From a virus: DNA of 64,000 bases. Where the stretch lies: IMG/VR virus record IMGVR_UViG_3300020182_001907. One strand, written 5' to 3'. Of the stretch, positions 23,202 through 57,029 are shown in pieces. The position numbers and the translations under genes are program-made. Position 1 is the first letter of the stretch. Each line of letters begins with the position of its first letter. A model generated the notes under the pieces. That model was not told the DNA's origin. It saw only the letters and a list, made by a program, of their open reading frames with translations, and did not search any database.

Positions 23202-23214
23202 AATAGTAAAAACT

Positions 23215-24693
23215 ATGACAGCCAATAAAATCAACAAACAAAAAATAATATTTGGTTATGACTATTTTTTCCCAAGTGGTCCACTACCTAACGCATTAGA
23301 TTTTGATGCAACATTGTTAAATCTCATAAATTCTAAACATCAGAATGCAAAACGTGGTTCTAGTATATTTACTTCTCCCCAACTTTTTCATACAAACATA
23401 TTAGGTATGGTTAGAGGCAATCCTGTACATCATTGGCCTGTAACAGAATACTCTAATTTACAAGCTGCTAATTATTGGGACATACTGGATATACAAATGT
23501 GTAGTGTGTATAGTATCCCCCCAGATGTAAAATACATATACCCAATTGTGTTACCGCCTCATTTAAACGAATGGATTTCTTTAGACGTTGTCCATACAAA
23601 ACCTGGCAACTTTTTTTTCAACAACATGAGTGCGGTGGCACGTCAAGACGTATGTGAAGGAAGAGCTACTATATTTCTAGATTTTGGACAAGAAAATTTT
23701 ATATCGAAATGGGATTTGGACAATTTACATCAGATGTTAGACCTGGTTAACCTGCGTGGTCCCAGTAGAGATAACTCGAATAAGATACCACCAGAACAAA
23801 TAGTATTAGGACATAATACGTTTAACGGCCAGGAGATTTACGAAAACTGGTATTCAGAGGAAGAAAGAAAAATAACGTACAGAAATTGGGACAGTGTTTT
23901 ACATCAAACCTCGAGGTTTTACGATCATGAACATGCGAATTCTTCAGCGTTGCCAACGTTGGAAGAATTAAATAAAGATGTAATTAGACAGTATTATTTT
24001 GTATTCAATAACAAACAGCCTAGACCATGGAGAATAGATTTGTTACTAGCTTTTGAAAGAATGGGATTGCTAGAAAATAAAATCAATTGGAGCTGGCTCA
24101 GTGACCGGGAGTTTGATTTAGATGATCTTAAAAGAAGTTTAGCACTGTTTCCTTTAGACAACAAGTCAGACAAGGATTTGGTCCAGTTAAACAGTCAATT
24201 ACCACGTCCATTAGATGGCGAACCTAACTCCACATTTGATAATGTAAGCGCTTGGACTGACAAAGATAGTAAACACATATTCTTAGACAGTTATTTCTAT
24301 TTGTGTACTGAAACTTACATGGATCAAGACGGCTATGAAAGCATCACAGAAAAAATAGCAAAGCCTATTGCTAACGGCCTTCCGTTTTTATTTGCTAGTT
24401 TTCCTGGTGTATTACGAAAATTAAGAGAATTAGGATTCCGTACATTCAATGGCTTTATCGACGAAAGCTATGACTTAGAGCCTGATGCAACAAAAAGAAT
24501 GGTAATGATAGGAAATGAAGTTGCACGATTATGCGCACTACCAAAAGGTGTAATACATGAATGGTACCACTCGCAGCAAGAAACTTTAATACATAATCAA
24601 CAAAATCTTTTAAAATATTACCAAAATTCTAGCCACACAACATCACTGATAGACGAGTTAGTAAAAAAATCCGGGGGTACAGAGGATAAATGA
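23215..24693 (+). CDS. Putative GT-B glycosyltransferase (GT10/exostosin-like C-terminus), paralog 1
   Basis: N..PRPWR...SYFYLCTET...ITEKIAKPI...PF...LRELGFRTF..IDESYDLE. Confidence 0.5.
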   Translation: MTANKINKQKIIFGYDYFFPSGPLPNALDFDATLLNLINSKHQNAKRGSSIFTSPQLFHTNILGMVRGNPVHHWPVTEYSNLQAANYWDILDIQMCSVYSIPPDVKYIYPIVLPPHLNEWISLDVVHTKPGNFFFNNMSAVARQDVCEGRATIFLDFGQENFISKWDLDNLHQMLDLVNLRGPSRDNSNKIPPEQIVLGHNTFNGQEIYENWYSEEERKITYRNWDSVLHQTSRFYDHEHANSSALPTLEELNKDVIRQYYFVFNNKQPRPWRIDLLLAFERMGLLENKINWSWLSDREFDLDDLKRSLALFPLDNKSDKDLVQLNSQLPRPLDGEPNSTFDNVSAWTDKDSKHIFLDSYFYLCTETYMDQDGYESITEKIAKPIANGLPFLFASFPGVLRKLRELGFRTFNGFIDESYDLEPDATKRMVMIGNEVARLCALPKGVIHEWYHSQQETLIHNQQNLLKYYQNSSHTTSLIDELVKKSGGTEDK

Positions 24694-25802
24694 GCGATCA
24701 AGAGATATTGCGCAATTGGGTATGTATGAACCCATTTAAATATTTAGACATTCAGGAAAATTTTTCTTGGGTTTGTTGTCCTAGTTGGATAACACTAACT
24801 CCTATTTCCAGACACTATGAGTTAGAGAACAACGGGGAAATTACTATTGCTGAAGATTGGTTTAATGGAGAAATAATTAAAGATATCAGGCACAGCGTAT
24901 TAGATGGTTCTTACGAGTACTGTGATAAAAAAGTGTGCCCTCATCTTAGCGAAATCGTTAACAATAAACAACCTACACACCCTTTGCCTATAATAACTAG
25001 AGCTGAATTCCAAGAACAATATCTAAAAGAAAAAGATCCTATAACATTTGTTGAGGAATTCAAAGAAGGACCAGAGGAAATATTGTTTGGTTTTGATCGC
25101 GCCTGCAATCTTAAATGTCCCAGTTGCCGTGATGATACAGTAATTAATCTCAAAGAGGAAGATCCATTACAAATTAAAAAAAGAAAGATTGCAGATATTA
25201 TCACTGATAATTTTGCACACAATGCTAAAAAGTTAATGATAACAGGAAGCGGAGATCCTTTTTACAGCAGAGCATTTAGGAATTACTTGCAAGAATTTCC
25301 TATTGACAATTATCCTAACATGGAGATGATACACATAATTACGAATGGTAACTTACTCAATAAAAAAATGTGGGATAGTCTTAATGCCAAAGAGTTTATT
25401 CGCAGTATTGAATTTAGCGTAGACGCAGGAACACAACACACATACGAAACAGTAACTAGGTTAAATGGAGACTGGAATAAACTGTTACAAAACATATCGT
25501 TTGTTGCAACACAAGAACAAATTAACGATATTACCTTAAGCATGGTTGTAAGTGAATTAAACTACACGGAGATGCATACCTTTTGGCTAACTATGACAGA
25601 TTTATTAAAAGATTTTCAGGGTAACCTAACGCTGAATTTTAGACGTATTGTGCATTGGCAACACAGCGCATATCGCCCAGAAGACATAAGAAACATTTCT
25701 GTATTTGATCGTGATCATCCGCAGCACGATAATTTTTTAACTGAAACAAACAAAATAAAAGATTTACCTTTTGTAAGTCATAACTTTCACGAGGTAATAT
25801 AA
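24690..25802 (+). CDS. Radical SAM enzyme with N-terminal SPASM/twitch-like cysteines
   Basis: CNLKCPSC and GSGDPF, plus N-terminal C..PF..VCCP..YCDKKVCP. Confidence 0.8.
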   Translation: MSDQEILRNWVCMNPFKYLDIQENFSWVCCPSWITLTPISRHYELENNGEITIAEDWFNGEIIKDIRHSVLDGSYEYCDKKVCPHLSEIVNNKQPTHPLPIITRAEFQEQYLKEKDPITFVEEFKEGPEEILFGFDRACNLKCPSCRDDTVINLKEEDPLQIKKRKIADIITDNFAHNAKKLMITGSGDPFYSRAFRNYLQEFPIDNYPNMEMIHIITNGNLLNKKMWDSLNAKEFIRSIEFSVDAGTQHTYETVTRLNGDWNKLLQNISFVATQEQINDITLSMVVSELNYTEMHTFWLTMTDLLKDFQGNLTLNFRRIVHWQHSAYRPEDIRNISVFDRDHPQHDNFLTETNKIKDLPFVSHNFHEVI

Positions 25803-25805
25803 ACT

Positions 25806-27272
25806 ATGCGACTACTGGCTCAAACTCACCCTAAACCTGAAAAACAAATTACATTTTTATATGATTATGCATTTCCTAACTACTATCTGCCTAATGCAAC
25901 TAGTATGGATTTATTCATGTTAAATTATATGAACAGCCAGCACGATGACGCTCCCAGCCCGTTTACAATAAACAATCATGATGCTGTAAGCAAATTGTTT
26001 AATAATAGAAATTATAATATGGCTGCAAGCAATCACGGATCTACACTATCCGCTTCTTGCTTTGCAAGGATAATAACCATAAACTGTGACACAATGGCTA
26101 ATCGTACAAAGTATCACCGTTATGTATACCCAATACATTTAACAGCGCATCTGGATCACTTTAATGGTAGGCCAGAGGGTGACAACAAGCTTAGTAAGTT
26201 TAAAGTAAATGGGGACTATTTCTATAAGTTTATGAGTGAACAAGCAATTCAAGATGTTCGCAGCGGCAAAGCAACATTATTACTTGATTACGGTTTAGAA
26301 AATTGGATACTTCGCACAGAATACGAACAAATACATGCGACACTAGACGCCGCTGGATTTCCAGCAGAAAACGTTGTGGTGTTTATTAATTCTTTGAATG
26401 CAGAAGATGTTTATAATGAATGGTTCCCAGATAATAAAAGATTACAAGTAGCAAATTTCCCCTATTTAATGATTGCGTCAAGCCAAACTTATTCCTCAGG
26501 AGAGAATTCAGTTACCGAAAAAAACTTATTAGCAAATAAAGACAACCTACGCACTTATCATTATTTGTTTAAAAGTCGTCGTCCTAGATTTCACCGCCAA
26601 GTCATTGGTTTGCATTTACTTAGTAAAGATAATTTAAAAAAAGGCAATTGGAGCTATTTAAGAGCAGGGGAGTTACCTGATCACACATTAAATTCTCTCA
26701 GGATACATTTTCCTGATATTGACTATATAAACATGGACTTAGTTGATTCATTTAACAGTATGCTTCCCAAAACACTGGTTGGCGAAGAAGACCTCACAGA
26801 ACAAACTGTTCAAACTTGGAGAGACTCTGAGTTAAACATATACTCTAACAGCTATTTTTATATCTGCACTGAAACTGGTTTTGGCTGGGAAAGTTGGCAT
26901 CAGAAAAGGGAGCACCATATCCTAACAGAAAAAGTGTGGAAACCCGTAGCTAATTTTCAACCATTTATTTTTTGCACTGTGCCAGGCACACTTGGACGAT
27001 TGCGCGAGTTAGGATACCGCACATTTGATGGCTATATTGACGAAAGTTATGATCTAGAACCAGATTACAACAAAAGAATGCTTATGATATTAAAAGAAAT
27101 AGACAAGTTATGTGCATTGCCACAAGAAGAAATACACAACTGGTATTGGTCCCAATGGGATATTTTGGTACACAACCAGCGTCATTTGATTGATCAATGC
27201 AAATTTGATAATGCTAACCTTCTTATAGAACCTTTAGTACGTAAATTACCAGCTAGGTGGATAAATGAATGA
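25806..27272 (+). CDS. Putative GT-B glycosyltransferase, paralog 2
   Basis: RRPRFHR...SYFYICTET...LTEKVWKPV..QPF...LRELGYRTF..IDESYDLE. Confidence 0.5.
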   Translation: MRLLAQTHPKPEKQITFLYDYAFPNYYLPNATSMDLFMLNYMNSQHDDAPSPFTINNHDAVSKLFNNRNYNMAASNHGSTLSASCFARIITINCDTMANRTKYHRYVYPIHLTAHLDHFNGRPEGDNKLSKFKVNGDYFYKFMSEQAIQDVRSGKATLLLDYGLENWILRTEYEQIHATLDAAGFPAENVVVFINSLNAEDVYNEWFPDNKRLQVANFPYLMIASSQTYSSGENSVTEKNLLANKDNLRTYHYLFKSRRPRFHRQVIGLHLLSKDNLKKGNWSYLRAGELPDHTLNSLRIHFPDIDYINMDLVDSFNSMLPKTLVGEEDLTEQTVQTWRDSELNIYSNSYFYICTETGFGWESWHQKREHHILTEKVWKPVANFQPFIFCTVPGTLGRLRELGYRTFDGYIDESYDLEPDYNKRMLMILKEIDKLCALPQEEIHNWYWSQWDILVHNQRHLIDQCKFDNANLLIEPLVRKLPARWINE

Positions 27273-27817
27273 ATTATAAATTACAAAAGTGGGACGAAGT
27301 AGCTACAAGCTACTTACAATCATTTGGGCAACAAGTTCCTGTTTACTCGCCTTCAGTATTTAGGGAATACAGAGGAGAAATTTTTACAACTTTCCACAGT
27401 CAAAAACATCCAGTACTAGAATACTTGACTAGCAATGTGAACATACACGCAAGATTTAGTAAAAGTTACAAAGGAGTTTTGCGAGGATTACATTACGACA
27501 ACAAAACTTGGAAATTAGTTCAAGCAATAGTGGGTGATATGTACTTCGTAGTATTAGACGTTAGACCAGATAGCAGTACATATGGTTTGTGGGAAAGTTA
27601 TATACTCAGTGAACACACCAGAGATCAAGTATTAGTTCCGCCAGGATTTGCTAACGGGTTTTTTGCTTTAACTGATTGCATGTTCCACTACAATTTATTT
27701 TATGAAGGAGAATATGTAGATGAAAATGCACAAGGCATTGTTAAGTGGAATGATAAAAATTTTAACATCAAATGGCCCACAAATAATCCTATTTTACAAA
27801 CAAGGGATGAATCTTGA
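27269..27817 (+). CDS. rmlC: dTDP-4-dehydrorhamnose 3,5-epimerase family (cupin)
   Basis: RG.IF, S.S.KGVLRGLH, KLV, D.RPDSSTYG.W, VPPGFANGF and W.D....I.WP. Confidence 0.85.
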   Translation: MNYKLQKWDEVATSYLQSFGQQVPVYSPSVFREYRGEIFTTFHSQKHPVLEYLTSNVNIHARFSKSYKGVLRGLHYDNKTWKLVQAIVGDMYFVVLDVRPDSSTYGLWESYILSEHTRDQVLVPPGFANGFFALTDCMFHYNLFYEGEYVDENAQGIVKWNDKNFNIKWPTNNPILQTRDES

Positions 27818-28512
27818 CATACAATGAATGCCATGCTTTTGGATGCAGTTTTACTTTTGGAACCTCGTTAGAGCTAGAAAGCAGCAACTGGAATCGCATG
27901 GACAGATTCTCATCATTGGTTGCTGAACACTTAGGATGTAAGGAAGTAAATCATGGACTTCAAGGATGTTCGACGGCTGGTATCTTGGACAGTGTGTACA
28001 AATTTGCTAATACTCGCAGTAAGCAACAAGCAGCAGACAATCACAATACTTTATTAATTATACAAACCTCTATTCTTTCTAGGTTGCAAGTATCTAGCAG
28101 TAGCCATAATAATTATTATCAGGTAATGAACTCAGACCAACCTGAGCCATGGATTAAAGATTTTTATAACATGTATCTAGCATATTCCTATAATAATTTA
28201 CTTGCATCTCAACAGTTAACTCAAAACATCACTGTGGTTGATGGTTATTTAAAGCATCAAGGATATTCGGTTATTTGGGTACCACTTGATTGGGATGTTA
28301 ATTCACCAAAATCGAGTGATTTTGATCCCAGAATATCAATTGTAGACTTTGGCGATAAAGACCGACTTACTGATATGTTAGTGTTCGCTGACAGACACAG
28401 ACTGCGTTTAGTAGATTTACCTGACGGTCCAAAAGATTACCACCTTTCCAAGAAAGGCCATCAAGAAGTAGCACAAAAGATAATTAATTGTATACAACGG
28501 GACAAGCCATGA
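27814..28512 (+). CDS. SGNH/GDSL-like hydrolase or acyltransferase
   Basis: AFGCSFTFG block I, NHGLQGCS block II and C-terminal DYHLS..GH. TTG start overlaps the rmlC stop. Confidence 0.6.
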   Translation: MTYNECHAFGCSFTFGTSLELESSNWNRMDRFSSLVAEHLGCKEVNHGLQGCSTAGILDSVYKFANTRSKQQAADNHNTLLIIQTSILSRLQVSSSSHNNYYQVMNSDQPEPWIKDFYNMYLAYSYNNLLASQQLTQNITVVDGYLKHQGYSVIWVPLDWDVNSPKSSDFDPRISIVDFGDKDRLTDMLVFADRHRLRLVDLPDGPKDYHLSKKGHQEVAQKIINCIQRDKP

Positions 28513-29138
28513 TCAAAAATTTATCTGCATATGAAAAAGTGCGTGACATCGATTACTCAGTACAAGATCTTAAAGACTTTGAGTTGGATATAGTTGAACA
28601 CTGGGAAGCAGGCAAAATACATGGACCTGTACATCTTAGTCATGGGAACGAACAACAACTAATAGAAATATTCCAGTGTATAAGTAAACAAGATTGGGTG
28701 TTCAGTACATGGAGAAGTCACTACCATGCATTGCTAAAAGGAGTTCCGCCTGATCAGGTAAAATCAGATATATTAGCAGGAAACAGCATTACACTGTCTA
28801 ATGTTGAACATAATTTTACTAGTAGTGCAATAGTAGGTGGGTGTTTAAGTATAGCATTAGGTTTAGCACTGGGGTTAAAAGAAACCGGCAGTAAAGATCG
28901 TGTTTGGTGCTTTATTGGTGACATGTGTTTTGAGAGTGGATTGTTTTATGAGACACACAAATATGCACGTAACTTTAATTTACCTTTACACTTTATAGTA
29001 GAAGATAACGGCGTAGCAACTAACACGCCAACTAAAGAAACCTGGAACGGAAAACGTGATATACCAGACGATGTAATTTATTACACATACGAATCAAAAT
29101 ATCCTCATTACGGTACGGGGAAATGGGTAATATTTTGA
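28509..29138 (+). CDS. TPP-dependent dehydrogenase E1 alpha-like subunit (short)
   Basis: GPVHLS.G.E, STWRSHYH, SAIVGG and the TPP/Mg motif IGD....SG..YE.....EDN. Confidence 0.8.
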   Translation: MIKNLSAYEKVRDIDYSVQDLKDFELDIVEHWEAGKIHGPVHLSHGNEQQLIEIFQCISKQDWVFSTWRSHYHALLKGVPPDQVKSDILAGNSITLSNVEHNFTSSAIVGGCLSIALGLALGLKETGSKDRVWCFIGDMCFESGLFYETHKYARNFNLPLHFIVEDNGVATNTPTKETWNGKRDIPDDVIYYTYESKYPHYGTGKWVIF

Positions 29139-30577
29139 ATGTAAAATTTGTTTATCAAAATTGGCATGATGGTTATCCTATTACTAATGGTTTGAATGCA
29201 GCGGCACTAAAAGAAGTGATACGCAGATGGGAAGAACCTTCGTGTAATGCGCAATCTCCAAATGATTTAGCTCACGAAGCCTGCCACGCAGTTGGACTAA
29301 ATTTCCCCTACCATCTAAAATCACAATGGTGGAAGCAAGCCGGTATTGAAGAAGTGAGAGTCCAAGACATAGACCCTCAGAGCGATACTATATGGATATA
29401 TCCTAACAACATAATGCGCGATTTCGGTGGTGTTGTGAGTGATTCCTACGATTTTTTTAGTGTATTATCTCCTGAATTGTTAGCATTTATGAGATCAGGA
29501 ACAGTAAAAATTCTGTTCGACAACTCTCACGATCCCACAGTGAACCAGGCACACTGTGGCCAAAAGAGTATATCGTATAAGTTCGAACTTAATGGTATTA
29601 ATCCTAACAACGTATTGTTTATAGCTGGCGACACCGACAGTGCGGTAGAAACTACAAAACATCTTAAGATGAAAATAATCCCGTTGGGTAAGTTTTATCC
29701 TTGGTGCGCCGCAAATACTTTTGTTGAGGCCTCTAAAGACAGCATTATAGATCCCATAGGCTTAAAGTCAGAGTATGTTACAGCAGCTGATTTGGATTCT
29801 AGTAAGATAAGAAAACACAAATTTTTAAGTTTTAATAGATCTTTACGCCCTCATAGACTTTGGCTTCTATGTAAAAGCATAGAACAAAACTGGTTAAAAG
29901 ACAATTTATTTAGTTTTTTGTCAATGGCTGGTGGCCGGGAGGTAGCGCAGGATATATTACTCAATATAAATTCTGATTACGATATTGCATCCAAAATTCC
30001 AAACAGCGGCTTAAAGAATATTATAGACCGCGATTCGATGCCCTGGTTGCCCCCTATTGCTAAGTTTAGCCAAAAAGTGGTAGACGAAGCTAAAAAAATT
30101 ATTCCGTTAGAATTAGATACACAATCAGTGCCCAGGGACAATCTGGGAGGGTTTAGTACTAGTAGTTGTAATAACAAACAATTTTACTCAGAAAGTTACT
30201 TTAATATCACTACAGAAACTGGACTTGATTATATGTTTCTTAGTGAAAAAACATTTAGACCTATTCAAAATTTACAACCATTTATTTTTATAGGACCAGC
30301 AGGTGCTTTAAAATATTTAAAAACTCAAGGCTTTAAAACTTTTGATTCAGTAATAGATGAATCCTACGATTTGGAAGCAGATCCCAGCATACGACTTACA
30401 ATGATAGCAGAGCAAATAAACAAAATTAACAATATGGACATGCAAACTGTCCACGATATGTACTATAGTTTAACAGATATACTTATACATAATCAACAAC
30501 ACCTACTTACATTTTGCGGAGATTCTCCGTATATAGAAAGTATGGAATACATAAAAGGAATATATAGTGGAAATTAA
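29123..30577 (+). CDS. Putative GT-B glycosyltransferase, paralog 3
   Basis: SFNR.LRPHR...SYFNITTET...LSEKTFRPI..QPF...GFKTF..IDESYDLE. Confidence 0.5.
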   Translation: MGNILNVKFVYQNWHDGYPITNGLNAAALKEVIRRWEEPSCNAQSPNDLAHEACHAVGLNFPYHLKSQWWKQAGIEEVRVQDIDPQSDTIWIYPNNIMRDFGGVVSDSYDFFSVLSPELLAFMRSGTVKILFDNSHDPTVNQAHCGQKSISYKFELNGINPNNVLFIAGDTDSAVETTKHLKMKIIPLGKFYPWCAANTFVEASKDSIIDPIGLKSEYVTAADLDSSKIRKHKFLSFNRSLRPHRLWLLCKSIEQNWLKDNLFSFLSMAGGREVAQDILLNINSDYDIASKIPNSGLKNIIDRDSMPWLPPIAKFSQKVVDEAKKIIPLELDTQSVPRDNLGGFSTSSCNNKQFYSESYFNITTETGLDYMFLSEKTFRPIQNLQPFIFIGPAGALKYLKTQGFKTFDSVIDESYDLEADPSIRLTMIAEQINKINNMDMQTVHDMYYSLTDILIHNQQHLLTFCGDSPYIESMEYIKGIYSGN

Positions 30578-31532
30578 ATCAAAAAACATCATTGTTACAG
30601 GCGCAAACGGGCTTGTAGGCTTACCTGCTGTTGAAAAATGTTTAGCAGAAGGAGCAAGTAATGTTTATGCAGTGGATATTAATACTAACAAATTAGAACA
30701 ATTAGGAAAACATCCTAATCTACACATAGTCAACTCAGACTTGACTTATCTAGATAAGTGTGAAGATCTTTTTAAAAATAAAGACATTAACATAGTATTA
30801 CATATTGCAGGCATTAAAGGATCTCCTGCAAGGTCTTCAAAACAACCTTGCGACTTTTTGTTTCCGATGTTAATGTTTAATACAAATATGATTAAAGCAG
30901 CATTTGATGCAAAAGTGGACTGGTTTGTTTATCTATCTTCTGTAGGCGTGTACCAACCTAGCCAAATTATGTATGAAGATGATGTATGGGCAACAGTTCC
31001 ATCTAAAAATGATTGGTATCCAGGCTGGACAAAGCGCATGGGTGAATTAACATTAGAATCTTTACAGGTACAATATGGATGGAACAATTGGACTGTTATT
31101 CGACCGTCAAACATTTACGGGGTTAACGATAACTTTGCTCAAGATGCAACAGTTATTAGTAGTAATATTTGGAAATTAAAAAATGTTCCAGGAAACATTG
31201 TGGCGTGGGGCGATGGATCCCCAAAACGAGACTTTGTATTTAGTGACGATGTTGCTCAAGCAAGCATTGATGCAGTAAAAAAAGAAGTAAATGATATTAT
31301 TAACTTTGGATGCGGCAAAGCAGTAAGTATTAAAGAAACTATAGAAACTATAGTAGATGTTTACACAGAAATTTCAGGCGAAGAACGAAATATTGTTTGG
31401 GATGAAACAAAAATGAACGGAGATCCTATAAGATGTTTAAGTTCAGCTCGCCAAGAAAAATATGATATACTACCTAATACTTCTCTCAGAGATGGGATCA
31501 AAAAAACTATAACTACGTATTTTGATTTATAA
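30567..31532 (+). CDS. NAD(P)-dependent NDP-sugar epimerase/reductase (GDP-fucose synthase-like)
   Basis: VTGANGLVG, SSVGVY, RPSNIYG..DNF and WGDGSPKRDFVFSDD. Confidence 0.8.
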   Translation: MEIKSKNIIVTGANGLVGLPAVEKCLAEGASNVYAVDINTNKLEQLGKHPNLHIVNSDLTYLDKCEDLFKNKDINIVLHIAGIKGSPARSSKQPCDFLFPMLMFNTNMIKAAFDAKVDWFVYLSSVGVYQPSQIMYEDDVWATVPSKNDWYPGWTKRMGELTLESLQVQYGWNNWTVIRPSNIYGVNDNFAQDATVISSNIWKLKNVPGNIVAWGDGSPKRDFVFSDDVAQASIDAVKKEVNDIINFGCGKAVSIKETIETIVDVYTEISGEERNIVWDETKMNGDPIRCLSSARQEKYDILPNTSLRDGIKKTITTYFDL

Positions 31533-31582
31533 GAAAATAGTTTTGCATTACCGAATTTTTTTGCTGTAAAAGACTGCCACGA

Positions 31583-31588
31583 TAAATA
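31583..31588 (+). promoter_or_regulatory. Putative late promoter (GATAAATATT)
   Basis: Intergenic, ~25 nt upstream of 31613. Confidence 0.55.
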
Positions 31589-31612
31589 TTACACACAAAC
31601 ACAGAGACAAAC

Positions 31613-32605
31613 ATGGAACTTACAGACAAAATATTAATAACAGGTGCCAGCGGATTTATTGGCAGTAATATTCTTAAAAATCTTTACAGTAAAGGATATA
31701 GGAACATACGAACTACAAGTCTTTCAAGAGATTTAAGAAATGACTTTACTGGTTGCGAAACAATCGAACATCTTAAAGGTGATTTAAAAGAAGAACAGTT
31801 CTGTACTAGTGTAACCAAGGACTGTGATGTAGTTATAAATTGCGCTGCAAGCACGTCAAATGCACTGGACACCAAAGTCAATCCATTAATCCACGTAACC
31901 CCTAACATAATTATGAATGTTAATTTGCTAGAACAATCATGGAGAAACTCTGTGAGTAAATTTGTATTCATTAGTAGTAACACTGTATACCCCGAGATGG
32001 GTAACGAGTATTGCCACGAAGAAATAGACTGTATAGGAAGCAAGTTAATTCCTGTGTATGCAGCGGTTGGCGGAATGAAAAGATACTTTGAACAATTGTG
32101 TGATTACTTTAGCAATCAAATACACAATCCTATGCAATGTATTATAGTACGACCTAGTAATGCATTTGGGCCTAACGATAAGTTTGATTATGATAAATGT
32201 CATGTAACTCCTGCTAATATACGCAAGGTAGCAGACGGGTTGAATCCGATACCAATTTGGGGCGATGGTAAAGACATTAGAGACTTAATGTATGTAGAAG
32301 ATATGTCAGACAGCATAGTTTTTCTAGCAGAAAATATTCACAAGTATGATATTGTAAATGTTTGTTACGGTAAGGGATATAGTATCAATGAAGTTCTAGC
32401 TGTCATGAAAGATATTGAAAATAATGATAATCCAGTGGACTATGTTAATAATAAAGCATTCATGATATCTGTGAGACTTTTAAGTAGCAAAAAACTTAAC
32501 GATATGGGATGGAAGCCTAAGTATACTCTTCGCGAAGGTTTGGAAAAAACTTTAAACTGGTATAAGCAAAATACACATTTATTCGATCCGGACAGCAAAC
32601 CATGA
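31613..32605 (+). CDS. NAD(P)-dependent NDP-sugar epimerase/reductase (GDP-fucose synthase-like)
   Basis: ITGASGFIG, SSNTVYP, RPSNAFGP.D.F...HV.PA and WGDG..IRD.MYVED. Confidence 0.8.
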   Translation: MELTDKILITGASGFIGSNILKNLYSKGYRNIRTTSLSRDLRNDFTGCETIEHLKGDLKEEQFCTSVTKDCDVVINCAASTSNALDTKVNPLIHVTPNIIMNVNLLEQSWRNSVSKFVFISSNTVYPEMGNEYCHEEIDCIGSKLIPVYAAVGGMKRYFEQLCDYFSNQIHNPMQCIIVRPSNAFGPNDKFDYDKCHVTPANIRKVADGLNPIPIWGDGKDIRDLMYVEDMSDSIVFLAENIHKYDIVNVCYGKGYSINEVLAVMKDIENNDNPVDYVNNKAFMISVRLLSSKKLNDMGWKPKYTLREGLEKTLNWYKQNTHLFDPDSKP

Positions 32606-33534
32606 AAATTCTTATTACAGGTGGAGCAGGGTATTTGGGCTCCACAATGGCGGAATATCTCCTTGACTGTGGACATACAGTAACAGTTCTAGACAATTTA
32701 ATGTACAAGCAGTTGAGTTTACTGCATTTATTTAAATGGGAAGGATTCAACTTTATAAAAGGTGATGTTAGAAATGTTAAACTGTTAAAAGAACTAGTAG
32801 GAATACATGATGTTATTATACCTCTTGCTGCTATAGTAGGGATGCCTGCATGTAATGCCGACCCTGAACTTGCTGTAGCTGTAAATCAAAAACACGTAGA
32901 AAACATTATTGCGTCAATGAACGACAACACCAAGATAATTATGCCTAACACTAACAGCCAATATGGAAGCAGTCAGGAAATTATTACAGAAGAAAGTGAT
33001 TTTAATCCACTTAGTTTATATGCTGAAACTAAATGTGCTGCTGAGGATGCAGTAATTGCTGCTGGCGGAGTAGCATTGCGATTAGCAACAGTATTCGGAG
33101 TAAGTCCAAGAATGCGTCAAGATTTGCTGGTTAACGATTTTGTTTACAGATCTGTAGTGGACGGTTATCTGGTTTTATTTGAAAGCCACTACAAACGTAA
33201 TTATATACATGTTCAAGATATAGCTAGAGTGTTTGCTTTTATGATCCAGAACTATGATGCTGCGAGTGGGCAAGCATTCAATGTAGGTCTAAGCAGTGCT
33301 AATTTAAGTAAACTTGAACTGGCAGAAAAAATCCATGAACACATACCTAATTTAGTTATATGCCAAGAAGAATTTAAAAAAGATTTCGACCAAAGAAATT
33401 ATATTATTAGTAATGACAAAGTAGAAAGCCTAGGTTGGAAACCACAATTTGGATTAGACTTCGGTATAGCCCAATTAATAACTGCATATCAAATGGTGCA
33501 AACTTACAACAACAGGAGTTTTACGAATTTATGA
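32602..33534 (+). CDS. NAD-dependent epimerase/dehydratase (extended SDR)
   Basis: ITGGAGYLG, LAAIVG, catalytic YAETK and RLATVFGVSPRMR.DL.VN. Confidence 0.85.
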   Translation: MKILITGGAGYLGSTMAEYLLDCGHTVTVLDNLMYKQLSLLHLFKWEGFNFIKGDVRNVKLLKELVGIHDVIIPLAAIVGMPACNADPELAVAVNQKHVENIIASMNDNTKIIMPNTNSQYGSSQEIITEESDFNPLSLYAETKCAAEDAVIAAGGVALRLATVFGVSPRMRQDLLVNDFVYRSVVDGYLVLFESHYKRNYIHVQDIARVFAFMIQNYDAASGQAFNVGLSSANLSKLELAEKIHEHIPNLVICQEEFKKDFDQRNYIISNDKVESLGWKPQFGLDFGIAQLITAYQMVQTYNNRSFTNL

Positions 33535-33956
33535 AATCTAGAAAATACAATCACACACTAGGAGACCTAATAGATAGGTTATCAATTGTTCAACTTAAAG
33601 AAGTGTTTATACCAGAGTTTAAAAATGAATATGCAGATGAAATTAACGACATTGTGCATGACATACAGCTAATTTTAGATGAAGAAAATCCTAAACTTGA
33701 TGCGAAAACCCTTAGAGCTATCATAGTATGTGCTCAAATGAATTTACATATTTGGCATAATGAGTCTAATTACCGACGAGGAATCAAGGAGGGTAATAAT
33801 CTAGAACTAACGCATGGATTAAATGGTATTCGTAATACCAGTAAAAATGTAATACAAGAAGCAGTGGGCGGTAGAAAAGATTATAAAGTAGACTGCTTGG
33901 CAGCTGATTGGAAAGATTGGTCAGTTAGTTGGGATGAACAAACAGGAGATAGATAG
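33531..33956 (+). CDS. Hypothetical helical protein (DUF6165-like)
   Basis: TLGDLIDRLSI..LK...N..IWH.E...R motif. ATGA overlap with the upstream gene. Confidence 0.5.
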   Translation: MKSRKYNHTLGDLIDRLSIVQLKEVFIPEFKNEYADEINDIVHDIQLILDEENPKLDAKTLRAIIVCAQMNLHIWHNESNYRRGIKEGNNLELTHGLNGIRNTSKNVIQEAVGGRKDYKVDCLAADWKDWSVSWDEQTGDR

Positions 33957-34488
33957 GATGCTGTACAAGGACGAACTAAAAAATGCAATGACCTACATAG
34001 GCAAAAAACCTTTAAGTAAATTTATTGGGCAGCAAACGGTTTATCCTGGTAACGTTACAAGCGGCACTTTGGTAAATGTCCCTAGAGATAAATTATTAGA
34101 AGTGCCAGTGTTCGAAGAAGTACAAATGGGTATGAGTTTGGGTTATGCACTAACAGGAGGTACAGTAGTATCAATTTTTCCTAGATGGGACTTTTTGATA
34201 AGTGCTACTAACCAACTAGTCAATCATGCCGACAAATGGAAACTTTTAACTAATAAGGAAGTTAATTTGATAATTAGAGTGTGCAAAGGATCAAACACAC
34301 CGCTTAATCCTGGGCTTCAACACCAAGGTGATTATTTTGATGAATTCCAATCAATGTGTAAAAACGTCAATTTCGTAAAATTAACTAAACCAGCTCAAAT
34401 TTACAACAGTTATGCAGAAGCAACAGATCAAGGAGGTGTACATTTAATACTGGAGTACCCTGACTTATATGAAACAACCGATGAATAA
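33934..34488 (+). CDS. TPP-dependent E1 beta/transketolase pyrimidine-binding domain only
   Basis: E.PV.EE.QMG...G.AL.G, PRWDFL..A.NQLVN and G.QH..D. At 184 aa it lacks the C-terminal domain. Confidence 0.75.
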   Translation: MNKQEIDRMLYKDELKNAMTYIGKKPLSKFIGQQTVYPGNVTSGTLVNVPRDKLLEVPVFEEVQMGMSLGYALTGGTVVSIFPRWDFLISATNQLVNHADKWKLLTNKEVNLIIRVCKGSNTPLNPGLQHQGDYFDEFQSMCKNVNFVKLTKPAQIYNSYAEATDQGGVHLILEYPDLYETTDE

Positions 34489-35329
34489 CAATACACGTTG
34501 GACTGAGAAAGCAATTGCATTTGCAGGATGCAGTTTTACCTGGGGACAAGGCCTTTATTATTATAGCGATTTAAGCACAGTGGTCCCAGTAGGCGAATAT
34601 GATTATCAAGATAATCTTGTTACTGAGATACAAAAAAAGTATGTAATGAGAAATAATTATAGCTGGCATGTTGCAAACTATTTTAACAGTGTTCAACTAA
34701 ACCAACTTAGGAACGGAGGGTCAAACTCCGATTGGATTAATTACTGGGGCGAAGATATATTGGGGGGTCCCAATCGGGAACATTATTACTATCCTGAGGA
34801 AATACACCTTTTTGTTGTCCAAATGACACAACCCCACAGAGACAATAACAGCCAATTATTTCCTTCAGATATGACCTATTTGGATGCATTAAACGATCCT
34901 AATCTACTTCCTGAAATAATGGAAATTCACGGCTTTAAAACAATACAAGAATTTACCAACGCTCATAATAAAATGGTTGTGGGAAATGTAAAAGCATTTT
35001 TACAAAAATTAGAAGCTCATGGAATACCTACTATGCTATATACCTGGCCAGCCGAGAATGTAAATCACATAATAAGTGATCCTTGGCTAGCTGAAAGATT
35101 TATGCGCATAACATATAATGGAATCACTTATGATTGTCAGTATGACTTGATGAACGATAATCCTCATCTAGTAATCAAGCACGACAAAAGTACGTTTGGT
35201 GAAAATTGCCCTACCGATCATCACCCTTCGTTAGAATGTCATAAAATAATAGCAGATAATGTAATACAACACATTACAACACACGATTTAATAAAGGAAA
35301 GAAATGAACGAGAGTTGGCAAGATCTTAA
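34469..35329 (+). CDS. SGNH/GDSL-like hydrolase or acyltransferase
   Basis: FAGCSFTWG, NGGSN and C-terminal DHHPS..CH..IA. Confidence 0.6.
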   Translation: MKQPMNNNTRWTEKAIAFAGCSFTWGQGLYYYSDLSTVVPVGEYDYQDNLVTEIQKKYVMRNNYSWHVANYFNSVQLNQLRNGGSNSDWINYWGEDILGGPNREHYYYPEEIHLFVVQMTQPHRDNNSQLFPSDMTYLDALNDPNLLPEIMEIHGFKTIQEFTNAHNKMVVGNVKAFLQKLEAHGIPTMLYTWPAENVNHIISDPWLAERFMRITYNGITYDCQYDLMNDNPHLVIKHDKSTFGENCPTDHHPSLECHKIIADNVIQHITTHDLIKERNERELARS

Positions 35330-35381: not shown

Positions 35382-35774
35382 ATGAAAATATTTGTTAATG
35401 GTACCTTTGATATTTTACATCCTGGACATATGGCATTATTTGAATACGCAAAATCGCTAGGTAAGGTGAGAGTAGCAATAGATTCTGATGCACGAATAAA
35501 GTTAATGAAGGGCGATAGTAGGCCTATTAACAGTGTGGAAGTTAGGAAACGCATGTTAGAATGCATAAGATATATTGATGAAGTTAGTGTTTTCGGCAGC
35601 GATCAAGAACTGATTGACACGGTAAAGACTTATGCACCTGATATAATGATAGTGGGTTCAGATTATAAACACAAAACAGTTATTGGAAGTGAACATGCAA
35701 AAAAATTGTTTTTCTTTGAAAGAGACGATAGATATTCTTCAACTAGCATCATCCAAAATATTAATAATAGGTGA
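35382..35774 (+). CDS. Nucleotidyltransferase, RfaE domain II/HldC-like
   Basis: NGTFDILHPGH, KG..RPIN, GSDY and YSSTSII. Confidence 0.85.
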   Translation: MKIFVNGTFDILHPGHMALFEYAKSLGKVRVAIDSDARIKLMKGDSRPINSVEVRKRMLECIRYIDEVSVFGSDQELIDTVKTYAPDIMIVGSDYKHKTVIGSEHAKKLFFFERDDRYSSTSIIQNINNR

Positions 35775-36492
35775 CGGCTGTAAAGATATCTACCACTACG
35801 GCGATGTAAATAAGATCAGCCAGGAAGCCCCTGTGCCTATTTTTAAGCAAGTAAAAACGGATTTTAAATTAGGCATGAGTTACAATGTGTGTAGAAATTT
35901 TAATGCTCTTGGATCAAACACAGTACTGCAAAGTTATGTTGCAGAGAATAAACATCGATACATAGATAGAAAAAGTAATCAGCAAGTATACAGAGTTGAC
36001 GAATCTTTAGCAACACCTCGATCTGAATTTGATTGTAGTGGAGACTTTGATGCAGTAGTGATTAGCGATTATGACAAAGGCGCTTTAAGCTATGAAGATA
36101 TCGAAGAGATAATTACATCCGCGAATGCACCAGTTTTTATTGATACAAAAAAATCTGATCTTGCAAGATTTAAGGATTGTATAGTAAAAATAAATGAGAT
36201 AGAATACAATGATAGTGTTAGCTTGCCAGAGAATTTAATTGTTACTAGAGGCAGCAAAGACGTAATTGTTCTAGATCAAGGTAAAGTTACAAGTACGCAT
36301 CCTGTTAATTCAGTAGAGTTATATGATACTACAGGAGCAGGAGATAGCTTTTTAGCCGCATTTGTGTTATACTATATAGCTACAGATCATTTAGTAGACT
36401 CAATAAACTTTGCTGTTAGAAGTAGCCAAATAAGTATAACTAAACGTGGGGTATATGCACCTACTCTGGAGGAAATATGTCAACTAGACTAA
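35695..36492 (+). CDS. PfkB-family sugar kinase, RfaE domain I/HldA-like (start uncertain)
   Basis: ILIIGD...D.Y.YG....ISQEAPVP, ISDYDKG and DTTGAGDSF. Confidence 0.8.
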   Translation: MQKNCFSLKETIDILQLASSKILIIGDGCKDIYHYGDVNKISQEAPVPIFKQVKTDFKLGMSYNVCRNFNALGSNTVLQSYVAENKHRYIDRKSNQQVYRVDESLATPRSEFDCSGDFDAVVISDYDKGALSYEDIEEIITSANAPVFIDTKKSDLARFKDCIVKINEIEYNDSVSLPENLIVTRGSKDVIVLDQGKVTSTHPVNSVELYDTTGAGDSFLAAFVLYYIATDHLVDSINFAVRSSQISITKRGVYAPTLEEICQLD

Positions 36493-36836
36493 GTGGTGAC
36501 GTGCAAAAAACATGGGGGTCAGAAACAATTTGGTGTTCTAACGATTTGTATTGTGGCAAAATGCTTAATTTTAACACAGGACATAGTTTCAGTATGCACT
36601 TCCACAAGGAAAAAGATGAGACATGGTATGTGCTTAGTGGTAAATTCCAGTTAACAACTATTAATACAACAAATGCTGAACAACTAGTTGAAACACTACA
36701 CGCAGGAGATGTAAAACATATACCGCCTATGCTGCCTCATCAGTTACTGTGTTTAGAAGCTGGCACCGTTATTGAAGTTAGCACACCTGATAGCGTAGAA
36801 GACAACTACCGAATGTGGAGAGGACAACCATCATGA
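36477..36836 (+). CDS. Cupin (mannose-6-phosphate isomerase/sugar isomerase-like)
   Basis: K.WG.E, SMHFH..KDETWYV..G, H.L and EVSTPD...DNYR. Confidence 0.75.
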   Translation: MSTRLSGDVQKTWGSETIWCSNDLYCGKMLNFNTGHSFSMHFHKEKDETWYVLSGKFQLTTINTTNAEQLVETLHAGDVKHIPPMLPHQLLCLEAGTVIEVSTPDSVEDNYRMWRGQPS

Positions 36837-37198
36837 AATACATAATTGACATTGACGGAACTATATGTTATACCGATAAAAGTGAATATACTAAATCTAA
36901 GCCTATAAGTAGTAATATAGACCAAGTTAACAATTTGTATGACCAAGGACATGAGATTGTTTACTGGACTGCACGTGGAGGCAATAGCGGTATCGATCAT
37001 TCCGAACTAACATTAAAGCAATTGAGTGATTGGGGATGTAAATATCACTCAGTGATGTTTAACAAACCTACTTACGATGTGTGGGTTGACGACAAAGCTT
37101 CTTGGATTTTTTCTGAAACACCAAAGGCGCAGTTTAGTGACGAATTAAAAGAAAGATTAAAAAAATTAAGAGAACGGGATCCGTTTATATACAGATGA
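36833..37198 (+). CDS. HAD-superfamily phosphatase (capsule-biosynthesis type)
   Basis: DIDGTI, WTARG and KP.YD.WVDDK. Confidence 0.8.
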   Translation: MKYIIDIDGTICYTDKSEYTKSKPISSNIDQVNNLYDQGHEIVYWTARGGNSGIDHSELTLKQLSDWGCKYHSVMFNKPTYDVWVDDKASWIFSETPKAQFSDELKERLKKLRERDPFIYR

Positions 37199-56285: not shown

Positions 56286-56287
56286 TA

Positions 56288-56959: not shown

Positions 56960-56985
56960 ATTAAGAATCCTTTGTAAGTTTTATA

Positions 56986-57014
56986 ATTATACAGCTATTT
57001 AGACAGGAAGTCAA
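56986..57014 (-). promoter_or_regulatory. Composite promoter upstream of folE: TTGACT-N17-TATAAT with embedded TAAATA
   Basis: The minus strand reads TTGACT TCCTGTCTAAATAGCTG TATAAT. Confidence 0.6.
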
Positions 57015-57029
57015 GTATCAAAGGAAAAT

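Follow-up and report, generated by a model that had tools for sequence, protein, structure and literature searches.

A minimal two-gene ThDP enzyme among heptose genes of a marine phage: a candidate for sugar C-branching

Introduction

Which reaction does a phage carry out with two genes that resemble the subunits of pyruvate dehydrogenase E1 and lie within a cluster of NDP-sugar genes? The question is raised by the IMG/VR virus record IMGVR_UViG_3300020182_001907, from which a stretch of 64,000 nucleotides (the window) was analysed. A first-pass annotation had proposed that the pair is not a pyruvate dehydrogenase, that it transfers a pyruvate-derived C2 unit to an NDP-4-keto-6-deoxyhexose, and that one SDR reduces the resulting side chain. 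That ThDP enzymes branch sugars is well founded: AviB1/B2, Pau11/12 and KbDH-alpha/beta form an established E1-type class (PMC4425429, PMC4753412, PMC12247030). These alpha/beta enzymes attach a C2 unit from pyruvate to keto sugars at C3 or C4, for KbDH-alpha/beta in vitro (PMC12247030), and in the paulomycin pathway the new acetyl branch is reduced by an aldo-keto reductase (PMC4753412).

Results

The two E1-like genes

The pair, here called mini-E1, lies in the following gene order; RmlC and the three extended SDRs that the first-pass annotation had placed around it are all present.

27269..27817, + strand: RmlC-fold epimerase of heptose type (GDP-4-keto-heptose 3- or 3,5-epimerase-like; Pfam, PDB)
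27814..28512, + strand: o232, 232 aa, N-terminal GCSFTFG motif (no family match)
28509..29138, + strand: mini-E1 alpha, 209 aa, ThDP diphosphate-binding (PP) domain only (E1_dh profile match)
29123..30577, + strand: GTc, 484 aa, putative glycosyltransferase between E1-alpha and the SDRs (no family match)
30567..31532, + strand: SDR1, extended SDR resembling Fcl (GDP-fucose synthase), canonical catalytic Tyr missing (PGWxKR; NCBIfam Fcl)
31613..32605, + strand: SDR2, Fcl/GDP-mannose-3,5-epimerase-like extended SDR, Val at the canonical Tyr position (NCBIfam Fcl)
32602..33534, + strand: SDR3, NDP-heptose C4-dehydrogenase-like (Cj1427 type), canonical YxxxK (PDB 6vo6)
33531..33956, + strand: o173, about 141 aa, helical, co-conserved with the module (locus conservation)
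33934..34488, + strand: mini-E1 beta, 184 aa, pyrimidine-binding (Pyr) domain only (Transket_pyr, BCKDH beta)
34469..35329, + strand: o286, 286 aa, GCSFTWG motif (no family match)
35382..37198, + strand: NDP-heptose supply set of four genes (NCBIfam, Pfam), namely
35382-35774, + strand: RfaE-II-like nucleotidyltransferase (NCBIfam rfaE_dom_II 1.2e-26, under cut-off)
35683-36492, + strand: RfaE-I-like PfkB kinase (NCBIfam rfaE_dom_I 1.5e-35, under cut-off)
36477-36836, + strand: cupin (Pfam)
36815-37198, + strand: small HAD phosphatase (NCBIfam EcbF/BcbF phosphatase 4.2e-7, under cut-off)

The alpha frame is open from a TTG (28488-29138), but translation probably begins with the ATG at 28509, which gives a 209-aa product identical to the called protein P0001. 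The match of this protein to Pfam E1_dh (1.6e-15) spans positions 4-173 of the 300-position profile, so that the last ~127 positions are missing. It matches NCBIfam PDH_E1_alph_y at 1.7e-25, far under the cut-off of that model, and PDH E1-alpha structures in the PDB at 1e-6. Matches to transketolase and DXS N-terminal models are weak (24.6 and 19 bits versus 89.6 bits for E1), as is that to the split-chain transketolase 6yak (1.3e-4). The ThDP motif reads GDM where GDG is usual. Among 23 relatives G137-D138-M139, E165 and N167 are invariant and D166 nearly so (EDN in the window), as are H42, S44, G46, N47 and E48 of the conserved PVHLSxGNE motif and W68, R69, H71, Y72 and H73 of the WRSHYH motif.

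The beta protein matches positions 12-156 of 174 of Pfam Transket_pyr (3.8e-4, under the gathering score) and BCKDH beta in the PDB (5.7e-5). The Pfam scan found in it no Transketolase_C domain, the C-terminal domain that binds E2. Its cofactor-activating Glu (E61), Q129-H130 and R84 are all invariant. The sizes, the missing C-terminal domain of beta and the distance of ~4.8 kb described in the first pass thus agree with the reading frames and Pfam; the two genes are 4,796 nt apart in the same tightly packed operon.

Several observations connect the two proteins. In 11 cellular loci their genes adjoin or overlap each other. In the cultured cyanophages S-SM2 (402 aa) and P-TIM68 (381 aa) they are fused, and P0150, P0228 and P0244 are further fusions with E1_dh and Transket_pyr in one protein. 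A model of the alpha-beta complex reached an ipSAE of 0.81 (best of three controls 0.00). Among solved complexes 58 of 80 attained this mark, among mismatched pairs 2 of 110; since solved E1 complexes exist, passing it expresses likeness to these and is not proof of binding. Contact agreement between the runs was 100% and the partner pLDDT at least 89. The complex model supports binding, though of a textbook pair. Judged from sequence and model, alpha and beta each supply one half of a single minimal heteromeric ThDP enzyme with the cofactor predicted at their interface.

Absence of the remaining dehydrogenase components

A tblastn search of the whole window with four E2s, an E3 fragment, a lipoyl protein and an E1-beta C-domain gave only matches with E > 0.3, and a Pfam scan of the reading frames of at least 350 aa, apart from the 3,796-aa frame 2-11392, found no E2, E3, lipoyl or E1-beta C-terminal family. 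Within this scope the earlier statement that the window contains no E2 or E3 is borne out. As the regions by which an E1 serves E2 are missing from both subunits, and neither E2 nor E3 was found in the window, the pair is by its sequence a ThDP enzyme and not a pyruvate dehydrogenase, as the first pass had held. It lies in an NDP-sugar operon. Its warning about automated annotation was justified too, for family members are publicly labelled "pyruvate dehydrogenase E1 alpha". In CPR genomes of 0.7-0.8 Mb which contain the pair, no E1_dh match beats that of this cluster, and the remaining ones are weak (28-35 bits) and lie in long open frames.

Distribution and phylogeny

The mini-E1 family comprises 191 clusters at 50% identity on about 280 viral contigs as well as in CPR, DPANN and SAR11 genomes. 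With 3,790 database relatives of alpha and the same gene set recurring in all 80 fetched viral loci, the pattern is not due to chance. In a small tree which included full-length sugar-cluster and E2-linked E1-alphas, the mini alphas form a separate, long-branched clade. They share ~30% identity with the former and 30-37% with true E2-linked E1-alphas. Of the phylogeny against PDH, AviB and transketolase halves that had been suggested as a check, the tree covers the E2-linked E1s, from which the mini alphas stand apart. Neither this separateness nor the low identities link the mini alphas by descent to the known branching enzymes.

The pair always has a reductase next to it, which is an AKR in CPR genomes, a Zn-ADH in cyanophages and SDR1/SDR2 in the window. 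The CPR loci have GmhA (SIS), GHMP kinase, HAD and NTP_transferase genes around it. The four supply genes also flank mini-E1 in cyanophages and compact viral loci, and both the window and the cyanophages have RfaE-like genes. In compact operons the mini-E1 genes stand between epimerase and SDRs and not by the isomerase or kinase. Some phage loci have a 4,6-dehydratase in place of the C4-dehydrogenase, with the pair equally conserved. In S-SM2 and P-TIM68, where the enzyme is fused, neither a Cj1427-like gene nor an epimerase of heptose type could be recognised. The S-SM2 record gives low T4-like cluster numbers to the kinase, the nucleotidyltransferase and the "isomerase", and to the ThDP gene a high number that is apparently phage-specific; this numbering by itself suggests that heptose activation genes may be present where the ThDP enzyme is absent. 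One relative, P0208, is fused to an APH-type kinase. Twitch-domain radical SAM enzymes and DegT aminotransferases are co-conserved in the pathway loci.

Neighbouring genes

In most loci the epimerase gene immediately precedes that of E1-alpha, whereas in the window o232 intervenes. The epimerase matches Pfam dTDP_sugar_isom at 2.3e-34. Its top PDB matches are the GDP-D-glycero-4-keto-D-lyxo-heptose epimerases of C. jejuni (7ang, 7an4, 7m14, 8dco; ~1e-34), whereas true RmlC matches less well (3e-23). SDR3 matches PDB 6vo6, which we take to be the GDP-heptose C4-dehydrogenase Cj1427, at 9.9e-88 across residues 2-302. SDR1 matches NCBIfam Fcl (2.5e-37) and PDB 4b8w (1.5e-21, with Pro aligned at the Tyr position), and of 73 sequences in an alignment of 72 homologues with the window, fewer than half retain the neighbouring Tyr. 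SDR2 matches Fcl (8.9e-41), PDB 8sg0 (4e-25) and the C. jejuni-type heptose reductases 7anh and 7m13 (about 1e-22 to 5e-20); it resembles Fcl no more than the heptose C4-reductases of C. jejuni, and a Tyr three residues upstream is kept.

Neither GTc, o232 nor o286 matched any Pfam or NCBIfam family. GTc was found in 81 of 95 loci (~31% identity); it has no BLASTP similarity to a GT10-like neighbour gene, and the Atlas offers only a 0.80 lead to GT10. o286 occurs in 32 and o232 in 16 of the 95 loci, their mutual similarity being confined to the N-terminal motif. o173 is ~70% identical in 35 loci, cellular ones included; Atlas leads are DUF6165 and DUF4254, and its single-sequence fold is poor (pLDDT 52.6).

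Discussion

The neighbours are enzymes of heptose type and not of 6-deoxyhexose type. Contrary to the first-pass annotation, the sugar is most likely an NDP-heptose, judging by the matches of SDR3, the epimerase and the RfaE-like genes. As these are of heptose type, the 4,6-dehydratase that was to be sought elsewhere in the genome is not required. Together with the GmhA-type genes of CPR they support a keto-heptose as the hub of the pathway.

From gene context and analogy we infer that mini-E1 is a C-branching enzyme, and we lean, with slightly better than even confidence, towards a ThDP-dependent reaction in which an NDP-4-keto-heptose receives a C2 unit derived from pyruvate. Acceptor, donor, position of attack and the roles of SDR1 and SDR2 are all deduced. 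The RfaE-like enzymes would supply the NDP-heptose, SDR3 would oxidise C4 and the RmlC-fold enzyme would epimerise C3 and/or C5 of the 4-keto-heptose. Mini-E1 would then decarboxylate a 2-oxo acid, most likely pyruvate, and the acyl anion of hydroxyethyl-ThDP would attack the C4 carbonyl. The product would be a 4-C-acetyl tertiary alcohol, that is, a branched nine-carbon sugar, whose new side-chain ketone the atypical SDR1/SDR2 would process before phage transferases use it. Reduction of the side chain by one SDR is possible, SDR1 and SDR2 being without the canonical catalytic Tyr. No SDR of the module appears to have a canonical C4-reductase site, which fits a C4 ketone spent on a C-C bond. 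Nevertheless, given its closeness to the C. jejuni heptose C4-reductases and its upstream Tyr, SDR2 could itself be the enzyme that reduces C4; the ThDP step would then lack the proposed acceptor. We count the GDM motif and the S-SM2 and P-TIM68 loci without epimerase or Cj1427-like gene as points against C2 branching. Our literature search found no assay of any family member.

A different ThDP reaction in the same heptose pathway has a modest chance of being the true one. The donor might be hydroxypyruvate, glyoxylate or 2-oxoglutarate, the enzyme might attack a carbonyl other than C4 or break a C-C bond adjacent to the ketone, or an alpha-ketol rearrangement of the adduct might give a chain-extended instead of a branched sugar. 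The atypical SDR1/SDR2 motifs, the radical SAM and the DegT enzymes point to more than branching followed by reduction, YerE-like enzymes take C3 to C8 donors (PMC9306805), and split transketolases have been proposed to move hydroxyacetyl groups onto keto sugars (PMC12247030). However, the known E1-type branching enzymes appear limited to pyruvate and C2 branches (PMC12247030), and with cleavage next to C4 the pyranose ring would be opened and the NDP-sugar lost.

It is improbable that mini-E1 is a minimal transketolase/DXS-like enzyme that supplies sedoheptulose 7-phosphate, or an analogous ketose phosphate, as the precursor which kinase, phosphatase and nucleotidyltransferase then activate. 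Activation genes are indeed constant companions in the window, CPR and cyanophages, and in S-SM2 and P-TIM68 they are the neighbours in place of epimerase and C4-dehydrogenase; the kinase fusion of P0208 and the weak transketolase and DXS matches point the same way. Against this stand the much higher E1 score, the position of the pair in compact operons, the S-SM2 cluster numbering and the fact that hosts already make sedoheptulose 7-phosphate.

Cj1427 works by a ping-pong, 2-oxoglutarate-dependent reaction (PMC10680097), and SDR3 is a close homologue. We nevertheless give very little credence to mini-E1 as a 2-oxo acid decarboxylase serving SDR3, whose type needs 2-oxoglutarate to re-oxidise bound NADH: the pair is conserved to the same extent in phage loci that have, in place of the dehydrogenase, a 4,6-dehydratase, an enzyme that works without external oxidant, and decarboxylation of the co-substrate would hinder the SDR3 reaction. 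Least credible of all is an auxiliary metabolic pyruvate or acetoin dehydrogenase E1 docking onto a host E2/E3 complex, for although the top named family matches and the public annotation are PDH E1, this is countered by the truncation of both subunits, the missing E2 and E3 in the window, the clade apart from E2-linked E1s, the small CPR genomes without a stronger E1_dh match and the sugar genes that always surround the pair.

The closest parallel to C2 branching by mini-E1 are the "alphaKADH2" enzymes AviB1/AviB2 (avilamycin), Pau11/Pau12 (paulomycin), AlmDI/DII (aldgamycin) and KbDH-alpha/beta (kibdelomycin), likewise two-subunit, PDH-E1-like and free of E2. They share with mini-E1 the NDP-sugar cluster, keto-sugar-forming enzymes, an adjoining ketoreductase and, by analogy, the expected C2 addition from pyruvate to a ring ketone. 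Mini-E1 is ~40% smaller than Pau11/Pau12 (209 and 184 aa versus 325 and 345 aa; PMC4425429), lacks the C-terminal region of alpha and the C-terminal domain of beta and has GDM instead of GDG. Its hosts are phages, CPR and DPANN; it forms a separate clade in the small tree and probably acts on an NDP-heptose of surface or virion glycans, whereas the alphaKADH2 acceptors are deoxyhexoses of actinomycete antibiotics.

The capsular GDP-heptose pathways of C. jejuni likewise activate the heptose, form the 4-keto sugar and epimerise it, using Cj1427 or a DdahA-type 4,6-dehydratase, a Cj1430-type epimerase and a Cj1428-type C4-reductase, and close homologues of the first two steps are present here. 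However, they have no ThDP enzyme (no mention of thiamine in PMC10680097) and end with a canonical C4-reductase, whose place is taken here by mini-E1 and two Tyr-less Fcl-like SDRs; the supply genes here are RfaE-like (ADP-heptose type) instead of HddA/HddC. YerE/ErwE, which branch CDP-4-keto-3,6-dideoxyglucose, resemble mini-E1 in the proposed reaction, the surface-glycan 4-keto sugar and the side-chain reduction (YerF). They belong to the unrelated decarboxylase/ALS-type superfamily (single chain of ~580 aa with FAD domain) and have no sequence match here. Split transketolases (proposed for miharamycin/amipurimycin; 6yak solved) are also two-gene ThDP enzymes with PP followed by Pyr but keep the transketolase C-terminal domain and signatures, while mini-E1 scores much better as E1.

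A widespread marine giant phage carries a stripped-down two-gene ThDP enzyme among genes for the remodelling of an activated seven-carbon sugar.

Operon and phage

The window is part of a large uncultured marine phage: exonuclease, ATPase and tail-fibre families of phages are among its PHROG matches, the contig carrying the alpha gene reaches up to 257 kb, and a blastn search of the window against cultured phages returned zero matches. Near word-for-word copies occur in marine and estuary metagenomes from 13 studies (2014–2025). In addition, metatranscriptome contigs from two studies span the window at an identity of at least 99%, and two metatranscriptome runs cover 30 of 30 bins including pieces on both E1 genes; DNA carry-over is possible for both observations, so that neither is taken to show transcription. 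From ~13.3 to 42.8 kb every gene lies on the + strand, mostly overlapping by a few bases. The scan of the window for promoters and terminators gave sites not above the level of shuffled sequence and is therefore uninformative on transcription units. On the − strand, three grouped genes may form a 7-deazaguanine (DNA base modification) gene set.

Genes of the window discussed in the text
20134–25802, + strand: three radical SAM genes
27269–27817, + strand: RmlC-fold epimerase
27814–28512, + strand: protein with GCSFT(F/W)G motif
28509–29138, + strand: mini-E1 alpha subunit (PP domain)
29123–30577, + strand: GTc, 484 aa, putative glycosyltransferase
30567–31532, + strand: SDR1, Fcl-like
31613–32605, + strand: SDR2, Fcl-like
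32602–33534, + strand: SDR3
33531–33956, + strand: o173, helical protein of ~141 aa
33934–34488, + strand: mini-E1 beta subunit (Pyr domain)
34469–35329, + strand: second protein with GCSFT(F/W)G motif
36815–37198, + strand: HAD-like protein (EcbF/BcbF-like)
38715–42113, + strand: 1,132-aa protein without Pfam match, last gene of the sugar operon
54848–57530, − strand: GTP cyclohydrolase I, QueE-like radical SAM protein and phosphoribosyltransferase, grouped together

A minimal E1-type enzyme

Both genes of the split E1-like enzyme (mini-E1) are real, as the first-pass annotation had stated, with an alpha subunit of 209 aa starting at an ATG and a beta subunit of 184 aa. Alpha matches the Pfam family E1_dh (1.6e-15) over profile positions 4–173 of 300 only. 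For beta the sole matching domain is Transket_pyr, with 20.6 bits under the Pfam cut-off of 27 bits, and the Pfam search found no Transketolase_C in its 184 aa. The nearest NCBIfam families are the E1 subunits of pyruvate dehydrogenase (PDH), at 89.6 bits for alpha (cut-off 393.85) and 25.9 bits for beta (cut-off 321), and the closest solved structures are PDH and BCKDH E1 subunits (1e-6 and 6e-5).

In heteromeric E1-type ThDP enzymes (alphaKADH2 fold) the PP domain of the alpha subunit carries the Mg/diphosphate motif GDG-X(25-30)-N. This motif is present in alpha as G137-D138-M139 ... N167, invariant in 23 diverse relatives, with Met instead of Gly as the third residue. The largely invariant alpha motifs in 23 diverse pairs are GDM ... 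EDN, HLSxGNE and WRSHYH. At its C-terminus alpha has an invariant PHYGxGKW tail, which might stand in for the lost active-site loops. The beta subunit has the invariant cofactor-activating E61 (PVxEE motif) of a Pyr domain as well as an invariant Q129-H130. Full-length E1 enzymes have an alpha subunit of ~320–370 aa and a beta subunit with Transketolase_C, and the pair has neither.

Alpha and beta form one enzyme, as indicated by adjacent genes, natural fusions and the model of the complex. The spacing differs: −4 to +24 nt in cellular loci, where both genes adjoin or overlap, and 1.9–9.3 kb in this phage group (4,796 nt in the window). Single-chain alpha-beta fusions of 381–408 aa occur in two cultured cyanophages, S-SM2 (SSM2_198) and P-TIM68, and among several metagenomic proteins, and the fused chains also come without the C-terminal domain, including three of 401–408 aa (P0150, P0228, P0244). 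The alpha:beta complex was modelled with an ipSAE of 0.81 (runs 0.82, 0.79, 0.81), while three controls scored 0.00 at best; because E1 complexes have already been solved, this is to be read as likeness to known complexes and not as proven binding. Of 80 solved complexes 58 attain the ipSAE mark, as do 2 of 110 mismatched pairs. Contacts agreed to 100% across runs, the partner pLDDT was at least 89, and the modelled interface is the canonical PP:Pyr interface (alpha 113–126 and 145–152; beta 58–74 and 93–98).

A split decarboxylase of the sulfopyruvate (ComD/ComE) or phosphonopyruvate type was also considered and rejected, since neither the order of the domains nor the family scores agree with it. 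In these decarboxylases the Pyr domain comes first, whereas in mini-E1 the PP domain precedes the Pyr domain in adjacent and fused forms alike. Such decarboxylases belong to the TPP_enzyme_N/C families, and mini-E1 scores 57 bits with E1_dh versus 24.5 bits with TPP_enzyme_C. No PEP mutase or coenzyme M context is present around the pair.

The mini-E1 family

The alpha subunit has 3,790 relatives in a 90% identity database, the best 120 of which are all 208–230 aa long and 65–73% identical. When 1.84 billion representatives were searched with a profile, 191 clusters came out at E 1e-30 or better, and nearly all of these are 190–260 aa long. Relatives are encoded on 280 viral contigs and in 15 cellular genomes (Paceibacterota, Saccharibacteria, Woesearchaeota, Pelagibacteraceae, Phycisphaerales and others). 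The plasmid collection contained zero mini-type alpha subunits at E 1e-20 or better, and the best plasmid matches at looser E are true E2-linked E1s. Three alpha relatives carry extra sequence of three different kinds: P0208 carries a fused APH-family kinase domain, and of the other two (P0149, P0154) one contains an intein close to its ThDP motif and one has a LAGLIDADG domain fused on.

A quick tree, weak evidence given its few rows (ten of them full-length), long branches and quick search, places the mini alphas in a single group on a long stem (SH-aLRT 99), separate from the ten full-length E1 alphas. The E2-linked E1s split off (SH-aLRT 95) from the mini family together with two full-length sugar-cluster pairs, one of the CPR locus L010 and one of an Azospirillum plasmid, which served as proxies for AviB, Pau and KbDH. 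L010 belongs to an uncultured bacterium with a small genome (0.7 Mb) and harbors a full-length pair (310 and 312 aa, with Transketolase_C) as well as a mini pair inside one heptose cluster; therefore both kinds are not simply interchangeable.

As the first-pass annotation had anticipated, automated annotation assigns these genes to PDH: JGI names several alpha relatives "pyruvate dehydrogenase E1 alpha". The copies of S-SM2 and P-TIM68 are annotated solely as "transketolase central region-containing protein". Our literature search retrieved zero papers describing or assaying the truncated family, and PMC6109700, considered as an example of a viral PDH mis-call, proved irrelevant.

Features of compared loci
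L010, 2837–4714 and 9980–11150: spans given for the full-length and the mini pair
L113 (phage), 9105–10298: DegT/DnrJ/EryC1-family gene
L015 (Phycisphaerales genome), 8750–9973: DegT/DnrJ/EryC1-family gene
L096 (cyanophage), 16998–17309: gene related to the EcbF/BcbF-like HAD protein, annotated as phosphoheptose isomerase
L097 (cyanophage), 12468–12806: gene related to the EcbF/BcbF-like HAD protein, annotated as phosphoheptose isomerase

Heptose-type neighbours

The first-pass annotation had placed the pair in the synthesis of a C-branched deoxysugar, with an NDP-4-keto-6-deoxyhexose as the substrate. This setting has to be corrected, as the neighbours are heptose enzymes according to the PDB matches of SDR3 and the epimerase and to the RfaE-like genes. 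SDR3 matches over its full length (9.9e-88) the PDB entry 6vo6, which we take to be the C4-dehydrogenase Cj1427. The chemistry of the Cj1427 enzyme has been described (PMC10680097). The supposed RmlC is closer to named GDP-D-glycero-4-keto-D-lyxo-heptose 3- or 3,5-epimerases (~1e-34) than to true RmlC (3e-23). Thus, both the heptose-specific 4-keto-forming enzyme and the 3,5-epimerase of the NDP-heptose tailoring pathway of the Campylobacter jejuni type have homologues in the window. Downstream follow two RfaE-like genes, for a nucleotidyltransferase (domain II type) and a kinase (domain I type), and then a cupin and a small HAD phosphatase, the cupin taking the expected position of the isomerase instead of a SIS-domain GmhA. 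The 4,6-dehydratase called for earlier is not needed in this window, and the search of the window found none; the only further extended SDR of the window, at 57485–58492 (−), was tried as a candidate and is GalE (321 bits, cut-off 262).

A similar setting recurs elsewhere. In the CPR loci L003 and L010 the pair is surrounded by GmhA (SIS), GHMP kinase, HAD, NTP_transferase, aldo-keto reductase (AKR) and GT2 genes, as well as by the epimerase seen here and SDR3-like genes. Further phage loci form a second group with a compact arrangement: epimerase, alpha, beta, (DegT), SDR1, SDR2, SDR, kinase, nucleotidyltransferase and phosphatase. In at least two locus groups the pair directly follows the enzymes making and epimerising NDP-4-keto-heptose.

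The HAD-like protein of the window is 42–51% identical to cyanophage genes annotated as phosphoheptose isomerase, an annotation which looks doubtful.

Companion genes

A reductase is always found beside the pair: an AKR in CPR, a Zn-ADH in cyanophages and SDR1/SDR2 in the window. In paulomycin, Pau7 is an AKR too. SDR1 and SDR2 are nearly always paired directly after mini-E1. Both retain the GxxGxxG and Ser motifs and the catalytic Lys, but the aligned position of the catalytic Tyr is occupied by Pro in SDR1 (PGWxKR) and by Val in SDR2 (VGxMKR). A conserved Tyr three residues upstream might substitute for it in SDR2. The C. jejuni-type pathway is finished by a C4-reductase with the canonical Ser/Tyr/Lys. 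The atypical look of SDR1 and SDR2 might reflect a retooling for an exocyclic ketone.

In most viral loci the module comes with the radical SAM genes listed for the window; two of the proteins, of 516 and 505 aa, reach 292 and 306 bits with the NCBIfam model "N-terminal twitch domain radical SAM" and so pass its cut-off of 170. A PLP enzyme of the DegT/DnrJ/EryC1 family adjoins the pair in L113 and L015; by analogy to kibdelomycin it could aminate the branch, or it could serve as a C3-dehydratase.

No BLASTP similarity was found between GTc or GTb and the GT10-like transferase of L113, and the Atlas GT10 lead scores only 0.80, so that the label glycosyltransferase is putative for both. The GTc fold recurs in 705-aa viral proteins fused to an Epimerase/GDP_Man_Dehyd SDR (Atlas, TM 0.58 by query). 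For o173 no PDB match was found; its single-sequence fold is poor (pLDDT 52.6) and the Atlas leads are DUF6165 and DUF4254 only. The proteins encoded directly upstream of alpha and directly downstream of beta have two motifs in common, GCSFT(F/W)G at the N-terminus and a D-x-x-H-like one at the C-terminus. They gave no family match, and their motifs recall SGNH-type esterases or acyltransferases.

Proposed function

Among sugar C-branching enzymes, E1-type alpha/beta ThDP enzymes working without E2 form an established class. Genetic evidence backs this role for AviB1/B2 (accessions AAK83190 and AAK83191, as quoted in PMC4425429) and Pau11/12 (PMC4425429, PMC4753412), and KbDH-alpha/beta couples pyruvate with cyclic ketones in vitro, with branching at C3 or C4 (PMC12247030). 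The gene context of AviB, Pau, Alm and KbDH is found again here, since a homologue of a C4-dehydrogenase or a 4,6-dehydratase and an epimerase flank the pair, and a ketoreductase (AKR, Zn-ADH or SDR) adjoins it.

The pair is a minimal E1-type ThDP enzyme and probably a keto-heptose carboligase. By analogy to these systems, we lean slightly towards a pyruvate-dependent C2 branching of NDP-4-keto-heptose. Mini-E1 would decarboxylate pyruvate, the resulting hydroxyethyl-ThDP would be added to the NDP-4-keto-heptose, already epimerised, at its C4 carbonyl, and the product would be a 4-C-acetyl heptose. This reading fits the loss of exactly those parts which serve gating and docking of the lipoyl arm, the constant neighbouring reductase, and the Pro and Val at the catalytic Tyr position of SDR1 and SDR2.

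A different ThDP chemistry in the same pathway, that is, the use of a different donor or carbonyl or a rearrangement following the addition, appears unlikely, although the radical SAM and DegT genes travelling with the module leave room for it. Still less probable is a transketolase-like enzyme supplying a ketose phosphate precursor: activation genes are the sole recognisable neighbours in cyanophages, which favours it, but the E1-like scores and the gene position in compact operons argue against this role, as do the gene-cluster numbers of S-SM2, our sole basis for suggesting that activation genes are commoner among T4-like phages than the ThDP gene. That the pair is a helper recycling 2-oxoglutarate is very improbable and was rejected because the pair is retained where a dehydratase takes the place of the dehydrogenase. 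A true PDH auxiliary gene is effectively excluded, in agreement with the first-pass annotation, by NCBIfam scores far under the cut-offs, the missing E2-binding C-domain of beta, the position of the mini family apart from E2-linked E1s in the tree, and the lack of any E2, E3, lipoyl protein or E1-beta C-domain in searches of the 64-kb window.

Implications

If C2 branching is the true function, the label "pyruvate dehydrogenase E1" is wrong for thousands of viral and bacterial genes, and surveys of viral metabolic genes wrongly count mini-E1 genes as central-carbon genes. The synthesis of tertiary alcohols is a current aim of biocatalysis, and an E1-type carboligase of 209 + 184 aa accepting a nucleotide sugar would be of interest to this field. 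The question is testable now because the cultured phages S-SM2 and P-TIM68 carry fused versions.

Mini-E1 genes would then be markers of a pathway that leads to a higher-carbon branched sugar not yet described, and the carriers of this pathway are cosmopolitan ocean phages, with near-identical window copies in the 13 studies, and CPR and DPANN cells with reduced genomes. The wider proposal is a possibility that we hold with slightly less than even confidence: the family may provide an undescribed nine-carbon C-acyl-branched (or, if rearranged, chain-extended) heptose for the virion or envelope glycans of abundant phages of marine and fresh waters, cultured cyanophages among them, and of many CPR and DPANN organisms, and its enzyme may be the smallest known E1-type ThDP carboligase.
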